Virus record (IMG/VR): IMGVR_UViG_3300042196_000036
Location: 1 to 45,564 of that record
Length of the DNA: 45,564 nt
Reading direction: 5' to 3' (one strand)
Origin: a virus
Taxonomy: Duplodnaviria; Caudoviricetes
Shown: positions 3,556-25,259 of the stretch, one piece after another
Position numbering within the stretch: position 1 is the stretch's first letter
Layout of the letters: every line of letters begins with the position of its first letter
Made by a program: the position numbers and the translations under genes
The notes under the pieces: generated by a model
What the model was told of the DNA's origin: nothing
The model's input: the letters and a program-made list of their open reading frames with translations, nothing else
Database searches by the model: none

Positions 3556-4944
3556 ATGCAAAACATCGAGCAGATCAAAGCCCGGCTCGTCGAACTGAAC
3601 GAGATCGGGAAGGCCATCCAAGCGAAAGCGGACGCTGAGAAGCGCGAGCTGTCGGCGGATGAACAAAAGGAAGTGGACGCCATTTTCAACGAGTTCGAGG
3701 CCGCCGAGGCAGACATCGCGCGCCGTGAGCGTCTGTCGGCTCAGGAACAGCGCCTCGGCCAAAGCGCCGGCCGCGTCGTCCCGCCCCAGCCGCTTGCCAT
3801 GCAAAACGGCTCGAGCGTCGTCGTCCAGAACGGTGTCGGCGCGGATGGCCTGCGCAATACCCGCCTTTCGACGGTCGAAGAGCGTGCCCGGTGGGGGTTC
3901 CGCGACTTCGGCGAGTTCTGCGCGACCGTGCGTTCCGCCTCGAACAACCCCAGTTCGATCGATCAGCGGCTGATCACGAACGCGCTGTCCACCTACGGGT
4001 CGGAATCCGTCGGCGCCGATGGCGGTTTCGCGGTTCCGCCCGAATGGCGCTCCTCGATCATGGAAGCCGTAGTCGGCGAGGACTCGCTGCTGTCGCGCAC
4101 CGATCAGCAGCAGGCAACCGGCAACAGCATCACGTTCCCGGTCGACGAGACGACCGCATGGCAGACCAGCGGCGGCATCCAGGCCTACTGGGACGGCGAA
4201 GCCGCTGCCATGACGCAATCGAAGCCGGCTCTCAAGGAAGTTACCGTCAAGCTGCACCGTGTGACCGCTCTGGTCCCGGTGACGGACGAGCTTCTGCAGG
4301 ACTCGGCCGCGCTCGGGTCGTATGTCTCCCGCAAGGCAGGCGACAAGATTGCATTCAAGGTCAACGACGCGATCCTGAACGGCACCGGAGCCGGCCAACC
4401 GCTCGGCATCCTGAACGCCCCGGCTACCGTGTCGGTTGCGAAGGAAACCTCGCAGACTGCCGCGACGTTCCACGCCGACAACGCCGTCAAGATGATGGCC
4501 CGCATGCCGGCCGCAAGCTTCGGCCGGTCCGCGTGGATCATCAATCAGGATGTCGTGCCGCAGATCATGAAGCTCGGCTTTGCGGTTACGACCGCCTCCG
4601 GCACTGCGGCCGGCGCTGGACAGCTGTACATGCCCCCGACTGGTCTGGCGAACTCGGGCGCGTATGGCTCGCTGCTCGGCCGGCCGATCATCGTCACCGA
4701 AGCAGCCGCAACGCTCGGCACGGTCGGCGACGTGGTTCTCGCGGATCTGGCTCAGTACCTCGCGGTGATCAAGGCCGGCGGCGTGCGTTCCGACACCTCG
4801 ATCCACCTGTTCTTCGATCAAAACGCGACCGCCTTCCGGTTCGTGCTGAGGATGAACGGTCAGCCGTGGCTGTCGGCGCCGATCGCTCGCAAGAACGGTT
4901 CGAACACCCTCTCGCACTTCATTACCCTCGCGACCCGCGCGTAA
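3556..4944 (+). CDS. Major capsid protein (HK97 fold, N-terminal coiled-coil scaffold domain)
   Basis: DGGFAVPPE, VTDELLQDS, ILNGTGAGQPLGILN, GSLLGRPI motifs; follows the protease. Confidence 0.95.
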   Translation: MQNIEQIKARLVELNEIGKAIQAKADAEKRELSADEQKEVDAIFNEFEAAEADIARRERLSAQEQRLGQSAGRVVPPQPLAMQNGSSVVVQNGVGADGLRNTRLSTVEERARWGFRDFGEFCATVRSASNNPSSIDQRLITNALSTYGSESVGADGGFAVPPEWRSSIMEAVVGEDSLLSRTDQQQATGNSITFPVDETTAWQTSGGIQAYWDGEAAAMTQSKPALKEVTVKLHRVTALVPVTDELLQDSAALGSYVSRKAGDKIAFKVNDAILNGTGAGQPLGILNAPATVSVAKETSQTAATFHADNAVKMMARMPAASFGRSAWIINQDVVPQIMKLGFAVTTASGTAAGAGQLYMPPTGLANSGAYGSLLGRPIIVTEAAATLGTVGDVVLADLAQYLAVIKAGGVRSDTSIHLFFDQNATAFRFVLRMNGQPWLSAPIARKNGSNTLSHFITLATRA

Positions 4945-22417: not shown

Positions 22418-22523
22418 TGGCGACGAGATCGCCGTCGTGATCTGGCTGCACGATCTGATCGAGACTGCCGGTCAATGCCGACGGATGCATGATATGTGCA
22501 GGGGCGACCGGATCAGGCGTTGA
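22266..22523 (+). CDS. o-spanin (Rz1-like) lipoprotein, overlapping the i-spanin in another frame
   Basis: Lipobox LMTG-C, Pro-rich, C-terminal C-x-x-x-H. Confidence 0.8.
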   Translation: MPRAPTLALIAAGLMTGCATSPQALPPQTPVPMQRPTECLTPCPLLPSITNGDEIAVVIWLHDLIETAGQCRRMHDMCRGDRIRR

Positions 22524-22935
22524 CCGGATCAGGAGCTCCGTCGATCCGATCCCGCACCCATCCAGCCCCGCCGAGCTGCGCCACCTTCTCCCGCTGTGCT
22601 GGCGTCATCCGGATGGACATGGTGACGGTATCTTCACCGACCTTCACCGGCTTGCGGCCCTGTCCTCGTCCTAGCCCGCCGAGTTTCGGCCTGTCCGCCT
22701 TGTCAATTGGGCTGCCATGGTGCGTGTTGTAAAGAGGCTGCTCCTCTTTGATCGCCGTTTTCTCCGCTTCAAGGGCGCCTTTCAGTGATTCGAACTTCTG
22801 AACTTCCATTCTTTCTATGAGGGCCGACCACCTCGATGCATATCGATGCTTCTTGAGCCTCTTGTCGGGGTTGTCTGAAACGCCGACATAAAGCAGCCTT
22901 CCGTCTTTATCGTAGTGCCTGTACAGATTGCTCAT
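22513..22935 (-). CDS. GIY-YIG nuclease fused to a C-terminal ribbon-helix-helix-like domain
   Basis: LYR...LLYVG...R-KKH...AE-AI-P-YN; C-terminal GRGQGRKP...SIRMTPAQREK...WVR. Confidence 0.8.
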   Translation of the reverse strand: MSNLYRHYDKDGRLLYVGVSDNPDKRLKKHRYASRWSALIERMEVQKFESLKGALEAEKTAIKEEQPLYNTHHGSPIDKADRPKLGGLGRGQGRKPVKVGEDTVTMSIRMTPAQREKVAQLGGAGWVRDRIDGAPDPVNA

Positions 22936-23153
22936 GCCAGAAGTCTCCCAGCCTTTAACTTGAACAGCTCCCACAGCCCCGGGTGCATGCGCGCTTTCCC
23001 TGCTTCCCAATCCTGCCAGGTCCTCATCGTCGAGTAGATCAGCGCTGCGGCTGCGGTCTGCGAGAGTCCGGCCGCGGATCGGGCTGCGCGGATCTGCTCA
23101 GGCGGAGGGTTCGCCGCAGGGCCTTTCGGCCCTCGGTTCGGGTGGTTACTCAC
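22932..23153 (-). CDS. XRE-family helix-turn-helix regulator
   Basis: IRAAR-AAGLSQ-AAA-LI...RTWQDWEAG. Confidence 0.85.
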   Translation of the reverse strand: MSNHPNRGPKGPAANPPPEQIRAARSAAGLSQTAAAALIYSTMRTWQDWEAGKARMHPGLWELFKLKAGRLLA

Positions 23154-23397
23154 CGGCGACCCACTGCGCATTACGCTTCTCGGCTGCCGGCTGCTCGATG
23201 GCATCATATGCTGCGCGGGCGCGATCCAAGAACGCTTGACGCTCTGCAGACACCGGCCCAAGAAGACCGACTCGAGCCGGAGCGCCCTTCATTGCCTCTT
23301 CGTATGCGGCCTCCGCTTTTTCGACCGCGGCGCGGTACTCGTCTTGAGCTTCTTGCGGGACGCTCCCACCATCGCCGAGGAAAAATTCGTTGTTCAT
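23146..23397 (-). CDS. Hypothetical 83-aa helical protein
   Basis: SD GGAG; first gene after the moron promoter. Confidence 0.65.
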   Translation of the reverse strand: MNNEFFLGDGGSVPQEAQDEYRAAVEKAEAAYEEAMKGAPARVGLLGPVSAERQAFLDRARAAYDAIEQPAAEKRNAQWVAGE

Positions 23398-23560: not shown

Positions 23561-23736
23561 CGGTTACAAACGAGAGCCGCAAACCCATCAAACACGCTGG
23601 TTTTAGACTGGTTTTTTTGGAACGGATCGAGGCATAAATATTTGATTGCGAATAGTTTATTCCCTGATTCGTAATCAGGTGATGCTCTAGCAATGGCGCG
23701 GCTTTCGGGGGTAGTGGTTACAAATCGGTTCCAAAC
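23561..23736. other. Putative attP
   Basis: Core CCTGA-TTCGTAA-TCAGG 23663-23679; arm-like GGTTMCAAA at 23562, 23716, 23727 and a degenerate inverted copy near 23616-23624; IHF consensus AATCAAATATTTA (minus) 23635-23647; downstream of int. Confidence 0.75.
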
Positions 23737-23738
23737 TC

Positions 23739-23814
23739 GCCGCTTTAGCTCAGTTGGTAGAGCAGCCGCTTCGTAAGCGGCAGGTCGCCCGTTCGAGTCG
23801 GGCAAGCGGCACCA
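23739..23814 (+). tRNA. tRNA-Thr (anticodon CGT)
   Basis: 76-nt cloverleaf: GCCGCTT/AAGCGGC acceptor, GCTC/GAGC D-stem, GCCGC-TTCGTAA-GCGGC anticodon arm, GCCCG-TTCGAGT-CGGGC T-arm, ACCA end. Confidence 0.96.
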
Positions 23815-24069
23815 TCAGCGCGCCGGCTTTGCCGTCAAAAAAACGGTATTCCTAGCTTCATATTGCCAAAAATCGCCCTTGCCGTTCGTTAGCTCGTGCC
23901 ACACGCCCGGATTCATCCGGCCGGTCCTGCGCACAGTCCGCACGAACATTCCATCCCGTTGCGGGTTGATCCTGCCTGCCCAAACGCCGCGCATCATTTC
24001 TCCGAATCGCGGCGCCCGAGTATCACCCCGTTCGCCGGGGCATTCGTCCCCAAAAAGTTCGTCATCCAT
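23815..24069 (-). CDS. Hypothetical 84-aa protein
   Basis: SD AAGGGG just after the int stop. Confidence 0.6.
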   Translation of the reverse strand: MDDELFGDECPGERGDTRAPRFGEMMRGVWAGRINPQRDGMFVRTVRRTGRMNPGVWHELTNGKGDFWQYEARNTVFLTAKPAR

Positions 24070-24079
24070 CAACATCCCC

Positions 24080-25063
24080 TTATCGAACCGGTTTAGCCGT
24101 CTTCCCGCGCCGTCTGCGGTAGATTCCCGCGGTCGTCGTCTCGCTCGCGTGCCCGAGCAATTCCTGTGCGTCGCGGACGTTGCCGATGTCCGTCGCGGCT
24201 TTCGGGCGCAGGTCTCGGAACTGCCACGTCTCGCCGCTGGCGATGCGAGCAGCATCGAACCGGTCGCGCATCATCGTCTGCGACATCGGTTGTCCGGTGT
24301 CGGTCTGCACGAGATACCGGCCGACGGCAGCCCGGGGGCGCTTGATCATTCGGTCGATGACCGCCGCCAGCTCGCCGGTGATCTGGATGCCGACTTTCGC
24401 GCCGGTCTTTCCCTGGGCGACGAGCAGATGACCGTCGACGATGTGATCCCGCGTCATCTTGCGCACGTCTGCGGGACGCTGGCCGGTGAGGCGGGCGAGG
24501 TCCAGGGCGTCCTGCAGCTCCGGGCAGGCAACGTCCCACAGGGCCTGATACTGGTCGTCCGTCACATAGATGTCGCGCCCGGCTTCTCGGTTCTTGCGGA
24601 CCCCTGCGCACGGGTTCGTCGCGCCGGTGATGCCGCGCTCGCGAGCCCAGTTGAACACCAGCGATAGCGTCGCAATCTCGCGATTGCCGGAGACCTTCGC
24701 GGTGCGCTTGTCCAGGTACTCGCGGATGTGCTGCGGCTCGATCTGGCTGAGCGATGCCATGGCAAACGCCGCGTCGAGCCGGTCGAGCGCCGCTTCATAT
24801 TCGTGCTGCGTCTTCGGGGATTTCCCTGCCAGCCCTTCGCGCCGGTAGCGGGCCGAGACCGACAGCCAAGCATCAGCCTGCGAGATCGTGCCGCGCTTCT
24901 CGAGTTCGGCCCACTTGATCTTTGCCGCGCTCAGGTCCGAGCCGAGCGGGATCGCCCCACCGGTGCGGGTGCGGTAGTAGTAGTGCGTCACGCCGGACTT
25001 CATGACGCGCCGGCTCATGCGCGGCGGCAGGTCGCGATTCTTCGAGGTTTTCGGACGGCCCAT
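24080..25063 (-). CDS. int: Tyrosine integrase
   Basis: LTGQRP-D, Q-KTG, FRDLRPKA, LLGH, terminal catalytic Y; N-terminal LPPRM...YYY arm-binding region. Confidence 0.95.
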   Translation of the reverse strand: MGRPKTSKNRDLPPRMSRRVMKSGVTHYYYRTRTGGAIPLGSDLSAAKIKWAELEKRGTISQADAWLSVSARYRREGLAGKSPKTQHEYEAALDRLDAAFAMASLSQIEPQHIREYLDKRTAKVSGNREIATLSLVFNWARERGITGATNPCAGVRKNREAGRDIYVTDDQYQALWDVACPELQDALDLARLTGQRPADVRKMTRDHIVDGHLLVAQGKTGAKVGIQITGELAAVIDRMIKRPRAAVGRYLVQTDTGQPMSQTMMRDRFDAARIASGETWQFRDLRPKAATDIGNVRDAQELLGHASETTTAGIYRRRRGKTAKPVR

Positions 25064-25064
25064 C

Positions 25065-25259
25065 TCACGCGACCTTGCCAAGCTGGAACCCTCCATCGTT
25101 ATCGCGTTTCGCCGTTCCGTCAATCGCAGATCTCGGGACTACCGGTCTCCCGGTAGCCGCGATCCAATGCCGGATGCCGTTTCGCGTGAGCCATCGAATC
25201 TGAGCACGCGCGACCTTGTACCCGGTCAAATCGCGCATCTCGTCAGGCGTCAGGAACAC
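25065..25259 (-). CDS. Excisionase-like DUF4224 protein
   Basis: FLT-DE-RDLTGY....Q-RWL-NGI......GRPVV; directly upstream of int. Confidence 0.85.
   Translation of the reverse strand: MFLTPDEMRDLTGYKVARAQIRWLTRNGIRHWIAATGRPVVPRSAIDGTAKRDNDGGFQLGKVA

Follow-up and report, generated by a model that had tools for sequence, protein, structure and literature searches.

The stretch of DNA analysed here (the window, 45,564 nucleotides) is the circular record of a temperate phage, 45.6 kb with a 127-bp terminal repeat, and carries genes for terminase, portal, capsid, lysozyme, RecT, a tyrosine integrase and a DUF4224 protein. No close DNA relative of it was found in the phage collection, where all 47 integrases are less than 60% identical to that of the window. 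The nearest named match of the integrase (74% identity) belongs to Pseudazoarcus pumilus, and the nearest genome match (75%) to a genome titled uncultured Azoarcus sp. (L028, genome G001 below); judged by the integrase alone, the host is likely an Azoarcus-like betaproteobacterium (family Rhodocyclaceae). Small accessory open reading frames lie on the minus strand between the lysis genes and the attachment site (22513-22938 and 22932-23397); by eye, one is nuclease-like and one helix-turn-helix-like, and no Pfam match was found in the part that was scanned (23146-23397).

The region 23561-23814 is the attP of the phage (Table 1). Its left arm has a GC content of 36%, against 62% overall, and contains a perfect match to the IHF consensus. 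All three window copies of GGTT[AC]CAAA fall inside the region (starting at 23562, 23716 and 23727) and a fourth, inverted copy lies in the left arm; the IHF site and GGTTMCAAA arms originally described as flanking the core are indeed present. The core is a hairpin (stems 23663-23667 and 23675-23679) whose loop, TTCGTAA, is the anticodon loop of tRNA-Thr(CGT); a search of the window allowing up to three mismatches returned only the hairpin itself and its own reverse reading (shuffle mean 0.01). After a gap of 59 nt follows the sole tRNA of the window, with a loop identical to that of the core and a different stem (GCCGC/GCGGC), and the original observation of a bare anticodon arm beside an intact tRNA is correct in this respect. 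Both the sequence and the alignments described below confirm that the core is not continued by a tRNA 3' half, and no tRNA 5' half precedes 23663. Folding of the leader between core and tRNA showed nothing special (z 0.07). The hairpin stem is best read as a pair of inverted integrase core sites and not as a tRNA relic, because the host stem most often found has another outer pair; the attP of element G029 (see below), reconstructed from its junctions, likewise appears to contain a perfect hairpin unlike its own host stem.

Table 1. Features of the attP region and the adjacent integration genes (G001 and G050, gene-repairing prophages)
Feature	Position	Strand	Basis
Putative arm-type integrase site, left (P) arm	23562..23570	+	Repeat family D2; place and spacing as in attR of G001/G050
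Inverted arm-type site, left arm	23616..23623	-	Aligns with inverted site of G001/G050 attR
IHF consensus site in AT-rich stretch	23635..23647	-	0 mismatches; one of four such matches in the window
attP core; 7-nt TTCGTAA overlap (23668-23674) between inverted core sites	23663..23679	+	Aligns with crossover point of G001/G050
Left half of tRNA terminator, overlapping likely IHF site	23695..23706	+	12-nt exact match to P' of G050
Two tandem arm-type sites, right (P') arm	23716..23735	+	Same pair adjoins integrase stop codon in G001/G050
Whole tRNA-Thr(CGT) with CCA end, replacement gene	23739..23814	+	Cloverleaf fold, z -4.2
265-bp insert with duplicated integrase 3' end	23822..24086	.	Repeat D1; joint 23821>24087
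Tyrosine integrase, 327 aa, convergent with tRNA	24080..25063	-	PF00589, E 1e-15; relatives 74-79%
DUF4224 protein, likely excisionase by position	25065..25259	-	PF13986, E 1e-17

The same attP layout occurs in a sister phage (L001, integrase 94% identical) and in a contig from a second study (X2). Both are free of the 265-bp insert, and in the sister phage the tRNA adjoins the integrase gene. In the window, the interval around the insert (23812-24101) holds a small minus-strand open reading frame. The end of the X2 contig at 23662, considered as a possible host junction, proved to be a strain bubble in the left arm.

Two prophages with integrases 74-75% identical to that of the window (G001 and G050) sit in tRNA-Thr(CGT) genes, which they repair: the duplicated 3' half at their far ends starts at TTCGTAA. 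Their left arms align with that of the window at equal spacing. These junctions and this spacing fix the core, orientation and target of the window site; the nearest prophage integrases act at the anticodon loop of a host tRNA-Thr(CGT) gene, the crossover point predicted for this phage, and the window enzyme itself likely crosses over there as well. The two prophages have little in common with the window beyond int and xis, and therefore give the type of att site, not the phage host. The Thr(CGT) 5'-half pattern is present, mostly once, in 270 of the 301 genomes of the family of G001. Among the intact native tRNA-Thr(CGT) genes sampled, 28 from 30 fetched loci in the likely host family, 19 have the stem ACTGA/TCAGT and share 15 bp with the core, which is the 15-mer expected from the original prediction. 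An array of 21 tRNA genes (G038:C21:25000-31000, L149) includes a Thr(CGT) gene with the exact 17-mer of the window; large tRNA gene arrays also occur on contigs C5 and C16 of G090. At L029 (G002:C162:10242) a degenerate second Thr(CGT) anticodon arm, a remnant, lies about 180 bp upstream of an intact gene with promoter.

In the ordinary prophages the core is followed by the tRNA 3' half, the terminator, two arm sites and the integrase stop codon; terminator and host promoter were both called in G050, and neither was called in the window attP. Aligned with G001 and G050, the right arm of the window has two gaps, one corresponding to the T-arm and the other to the second terminator half with its U-tract. 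The alignment score of the window P' arm exceeds all 2000 shuffles for three of three relatives, partly owing to the arm repeats. The whole tRNA is placed between the last arm site and the integrase stop codon. These remnants suggest that an ordinary gene-repairing attP came first and that the window site is derived from it. The remaining 12-nt terminator half may have been kept as an IHF site, which would leave the homology unchanged and weaken a claim of selection for read-through.

In an integrase tree of 24 rows, which replaced a quick 38-row tree with long branches and in which most gene-repairing labels are drawn from a single junction, the G001 and G050 prophages form the sister clade of the window integrase (support 99/98). 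Placing all six replacement-type rows in a single clade was rejected (p-AU 2e-6), and a single clade of the three Thr replacement rows was not (p-AU 0.07). On these sequences, the tests show at least two origins of whole-gene replacement, not three.

A split host gene with an adjacent whole replacement was found, with both ends mapped, in four elements (G029, G117, G090 and G303). The first two are 11-kb Prim-Pol elements in tRNA-Thr(CGT) whose P4-like integrase is unrelated to that of the window. In them the host promoter is followed by the broken 5' half of Thr(CGT), about 115 nt, and a whole Thr(CGT); the orphan 3' half lies 11 kb away, and its acceptor strand pairs with the broken half. 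The other two occupy tRNA-Ser(TGA) and belong to the integrase family of the window: G090 is a 27-kb BREX island and G303 a prophage of about 41 kb. A further Ser(TGA) element, G238, has only its left end mapped, and the integrases of these three Ser elements are 41-43% identical to that of the window over their full length. Single junctions are not tRNAs, whereas joining the two halves computationally restores a whole tRNA in three of four cases (G117 was not callable); the common cores of split elements measure 7-9 bp. In the attL and attR of relatives the predicted split gene exists in four elements, with the whole replacement placed just inside attL, and G001 and G050 instead have a repaired gene; the claim that the phage breaks a host tRNA and supplies a complete copy holds for these split relatives and is likely for the window phage. 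No integrated copy of the window phage and no replacement-type member of its sub-clade was found: the three close integrases in 301 and 251 overlapping genomes are all gene-repairing, the double-Thr pattern occurs in one of 401 order-level genomes, which is G029 again, and contigs of two DNA runs, one of which (X1) may be the source of the window, contained no host junctions and neither joints nor loose ends where the core lies.

The 5'-half pattern for Thr finds nothing in G029 and G117 beyond the broken half and the replacement. By a D-arm/loop pattern, the replacement is the only Ser(TGA) tRNA in G238, G090 and G303, a soft count given that the genomes are drafts and that four pattern matches away from the loci lie outside the ARAGORN calls. 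In G303 (C7:152800-152885) the replacement is preceded by a tandem of two different broken Ser(TGA) 5' halves, which suggests that elements integrated here one after another. Along with its BREX defence system, the island of G090 that replaces Ser(TGA) (C20, ~290000-316700) carries ArdC.

Free and integrated forms can be compared in the Ser(TGA) branch of the integrase family, where 15 of the 18 pattern matches in viral contigs were retained; L205 and L221 were dropped as tRNA arrays, and L213 for its own promoter and distant integrase. Nine of these loci are free attP sites (five distinct) and six are split left junctions (five distinct), with right arm and replacement near-identical between the two forms; within one Ser lineage, the attP anatomy is tied to the split state. 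A Thr(CGT) core with arms and a whole tRNA was found in seven of 13 viral matches, beside an integrase in 7/7, and such Thr-type attP sites involve at least three integrase groups. At L041 (3200-3490; integrase 59% identical) the core, arm and whole-tRNA cassette is inverted relative to int. Among the Thr matches dropped, L106 has a native-looking promoter and an intact gene without arm repeats, and presumably resembles enterobacterial thrW. L104, L107, L109, L111 and L114 were dropped for their AT-rich hosts and different break point: here Thr(CGT) is cut in the T-arm and a whole copy follows about 45 nt later, which may be a T-loop version of the same strategy.

A -10 box (at least 5/6 positions within 60 nt) precedes 25 of 28 native Thr genes, four of five broken halves and one of 12 replacements by a crude 6-mer score, whose best value for the window replacement is 3/6. 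At the L108 replacement TACAAT adjoins the core, and the score of the G090 broken half is no more than 3. Read-through from the host promoter into the phage tRNA is likely, because replacements lack a -10 box and the terminator has been lost. Processing of tRNA precursors by RNase P and RNase E is well known and would be expected of this transcript. As for the predicted reading of the tRNA from the host promoter, the missing box, the halved terminator and the position all agree with it, and the read-through itself we infer.

The proposal that an altered stem protects the phage tRNA from its own integrase fits the clade of the window, where Thr att sites near it in the tree have TCAG to the right of the loop, a motif that the phage tRNA lacks at this place. 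It fails for G029 and G117, whose replacements have the same stem as the target; the split target of G117 matches the replacement of G029, and some Ser replacements keep host-like flanks. Moreover, the phage tRNA stem is one base pair from the natural host stem class ACCGC, so the alteration may be simple capture. Dependence of the lysogen on the phage tRNA, also proposed originally, is doubtful, as thrW can be deleted in E. coli and the knockouts grow, according to the available text of the source (PMC6599085). Given these viable knockouts and the redundant reading of ACG, loss of Thr(CGT) is more likely to affect fitness than to be lethal. Dependence is more plausible in the relatives that target Ser(TGA); by wobble rules, tRNA-Ser(TGA) is the sole reader of UCA.

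Taken together, the data make it quite probable that the phage integrates by a crossover within the anticodon loop of the tRNA-Thr(CGT) gene of its host and leaves that gene split, with its own whole tRNA likely read from the host promoter. The left junction would then consist of the host promoter, a dead 5' half, the core, the terminator-less right arm of 59 nt, the phage tRNA and the convergent integrase gene, and the right junction of the left arm, the core and the orphan host 3' half. Such a site would likely have arisen from a gene-repairing attP that acquired a tRNA next to the integrase stop codon, just past the last arm site, and lost the T-arm together with half of the terminator. The likely role of the extra tRNA would be to keep ACG decoding efficient, without being strictly needed for survival. 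More tentatively, at a little under an even chance, the attP may be a promoter-hijacking cassette: its deleted terminator would let the host promoter express the phage tRNA allele only upon integration, the changed stem would block re-targeting, and the family would have switched between 3' repair, 5' repair and replacement more than once. On this reading the switch also occurred at a dispensable tRNA, and the driver would thus not be host survival only.

Several other explanations were weighed. The phage might split and replace the gene in the same way and express its tRNA from a weak or non-sigma70 promoter of its own or from phage transcripts. A tRNA with a strong promoter of its own is described for phage Fionnbharth in the available text of PMC10865867, and consensus scans do miss real promoters, none having been called at the G029 host promoter either; against this stand the -10 box missing from 11 of 12 replacement leaders and present in 25 of 28 natives, the constant orientation and position of the tRNA downstream of the host promoter and the deletion of half the terminator, and we consider such expression unlikely. 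Alternatively, the tRNA could serve lytic translation or counter a host anticodon nuclease, its place in attP being a by-product of capture and the broken host tRNA a dispensable one. ACG is the commonest threonine codon in ten long phage genes (152/340), thrW is dispensable in E. coli (PMC6599085, available text), and a 49-kb record with terminal repeats (G008, L042) contains no tRNA at all, although it has at 3950-4200 an attP-like region whose short core looks like a CAT-anticodon loop. Yet the anticodon always matches the core in both the Thr and the Ser lineages, the same cassette occurs in non-phage islands that have no lytic cycle, and the tRNA lacks a promoter that the free phage could use; a lytic role, which is not mutually exclusive with the split-and-replace reading, seems quite improbable as the explanation of the locus.

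Ordinary integration through the whole tRNA, by its 3' end or its own loop, would make the hairpin a relic. Most relatives in the integrase family do repair the gene with a 3' half, and the multiple alignment is also readable as an insertion between core and T-arm, but the arm sites flank the hairpin and none lies beyond the tRNA, which in the sister phage adjoins int. Crossover in the loop of the phage tRNA would, in addition, leave anticodon stems whose strands do not pair if the host gene has the common stem, and two X2 variants that differ in the left arm agree in hairpin and right arm; we regard this course as very improbable. Finally, the minus strand of the hairpin can be read as the anticodon arm of tRNA-Arg(ACG), with which the reversed 17-mer is identical in 7 of 24 viral loci. 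An Arg target is scarcely credible when the nearest integrases, with an identical arrangement of arms, act at Thr(CGT) in plus orientation and the cargo tRNA is Thr.

The split-and-replace reading places the phage close to tRNA-dependent lysogeny, described in 2024 for actinobacteriophages (Fionnbharth/K4, cluster L, Cain, BrutonGaster, OneUp, Mollymur and Gaia), in which, as the available text has it, a short core without repair is combined with a cognate phage tRNA (PMC10865867). Judging from the same text, the window shares with these phages a tyrosine integrase, a core of 8-17 bp in a host tRNA, lack of repair and a tRNA of the same anticodon. It differs in having the tRNA inside attP, no -10 box, a likely betaproteobacterial host and a type of target that E. 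coli can dispense with, whereas in the actinobacteriophages the tRNA tested has its own promoter and usually lies away from attP, and the gene replaced is essential. Of the four features of tRNA-dependent lysogeny given in the text available, three are found in the window: a tyrosine integrase with attB inside a host tRNA, the presumed target being that of the sister clade; a short core without rebuilding, at most 15 bp in common with host arms, with the split state seen in relatives; and a phage tRNA of the target's anticodon. The fourth, a requirement for the phage tRNA, is doubtful for Thr(CGT). In the Gaia record int is followed by 286 bp and tRNA-Leu(CAA) on the same strand, much like L041, the position of the core in the Gaia record being our inference; a tRNA just past attP is already found in this published example. 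L042 resembles the tRNA-less clear-plaque phages of the same paper, as far as its available text describes them, or has a different target.

A proteobacterial case is provided by Lo5R7ANS-like prophages of Sinorhizobium meliloti, which, from the available texts, interrupt tRNA-Leu(UAG) in its middle and bring along a tRNA of that type from elsewhere (PMC11476347, PMC12429752); they are alphaproteobacterial, unlike the likely host of the window (PMC11476347). The principle is thus already published (PMC10865867, available text), with the relation to ordinary tRNA repair and the extent beyond Actinobacteria left open there and host-promoter read-through not among the proposals of that text. The open-access literature, in the text available, gave no match for host-promoter capture or for derivation from an ordinary attP. 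New here are the betaproteobacterial integrase family and the visible route from an ordinary attP: ordinary and replacement attP sites whose integrases are 75% identical can be compared in a nucleotide-level alignment. If the reading is true, the window and its ordinary relatives form a before-and-after pair for the origin of tRNA-dependent lysogeny. The cassette, 255 bp long, lends itself to a direct test of host-promoter capture and of the non-substrate stem.

Phage P22 integrates at thrW and restores the tRNA. Ordinary integrators of this kind, the class A anticodon-loop sites of Islander in its available text (PMC4383910), share crossover subsite and arm layout with the window but have the 3' half, directly after the core, and the terminator in attP, both of which the window has lost. 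Elements restoring a 5' fragment make up 159 of 3919 Islander islands in the text available. They resemble the window model in leaving a dead host 5' half at one junction and differ in providing a 5' half with its own promoter at the far junction, where the window has a whole gene; no 5' half with promoter precedes the window core. Replacement elements exchange one tRNA allele of the host for another, and programs for finding islands that look for a repaired gene likely map them wrongly; the Islander signature, a whole gene plus one end fragment, would mis-map or miss them.

The 5'-half strategy occurs within the integrase family of the window. In G004 (integrase 56% identical), which integrates at tRNA-Ser(CGA) and has both ends checked, the host 5' half is dead at C11:1044383 and the far end, at ~1057050, is rebuilt with the 5' half and promoter of the element (L062, L182); the common core is 42 bp. 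The 5'-half pattern with the same integrase family at Ser(CGA) was also observed at L030, L054, L058, L059 and L056/L057. In Deefgea, 15-16 kb elements (L088/L093 in G311, L089/L094 in G310) have a whole Ser(TGA) at both ends, with arm-like repeats and a stretch resembling a promoter in front of the far copy, a layout that is a possible fourth strategy.
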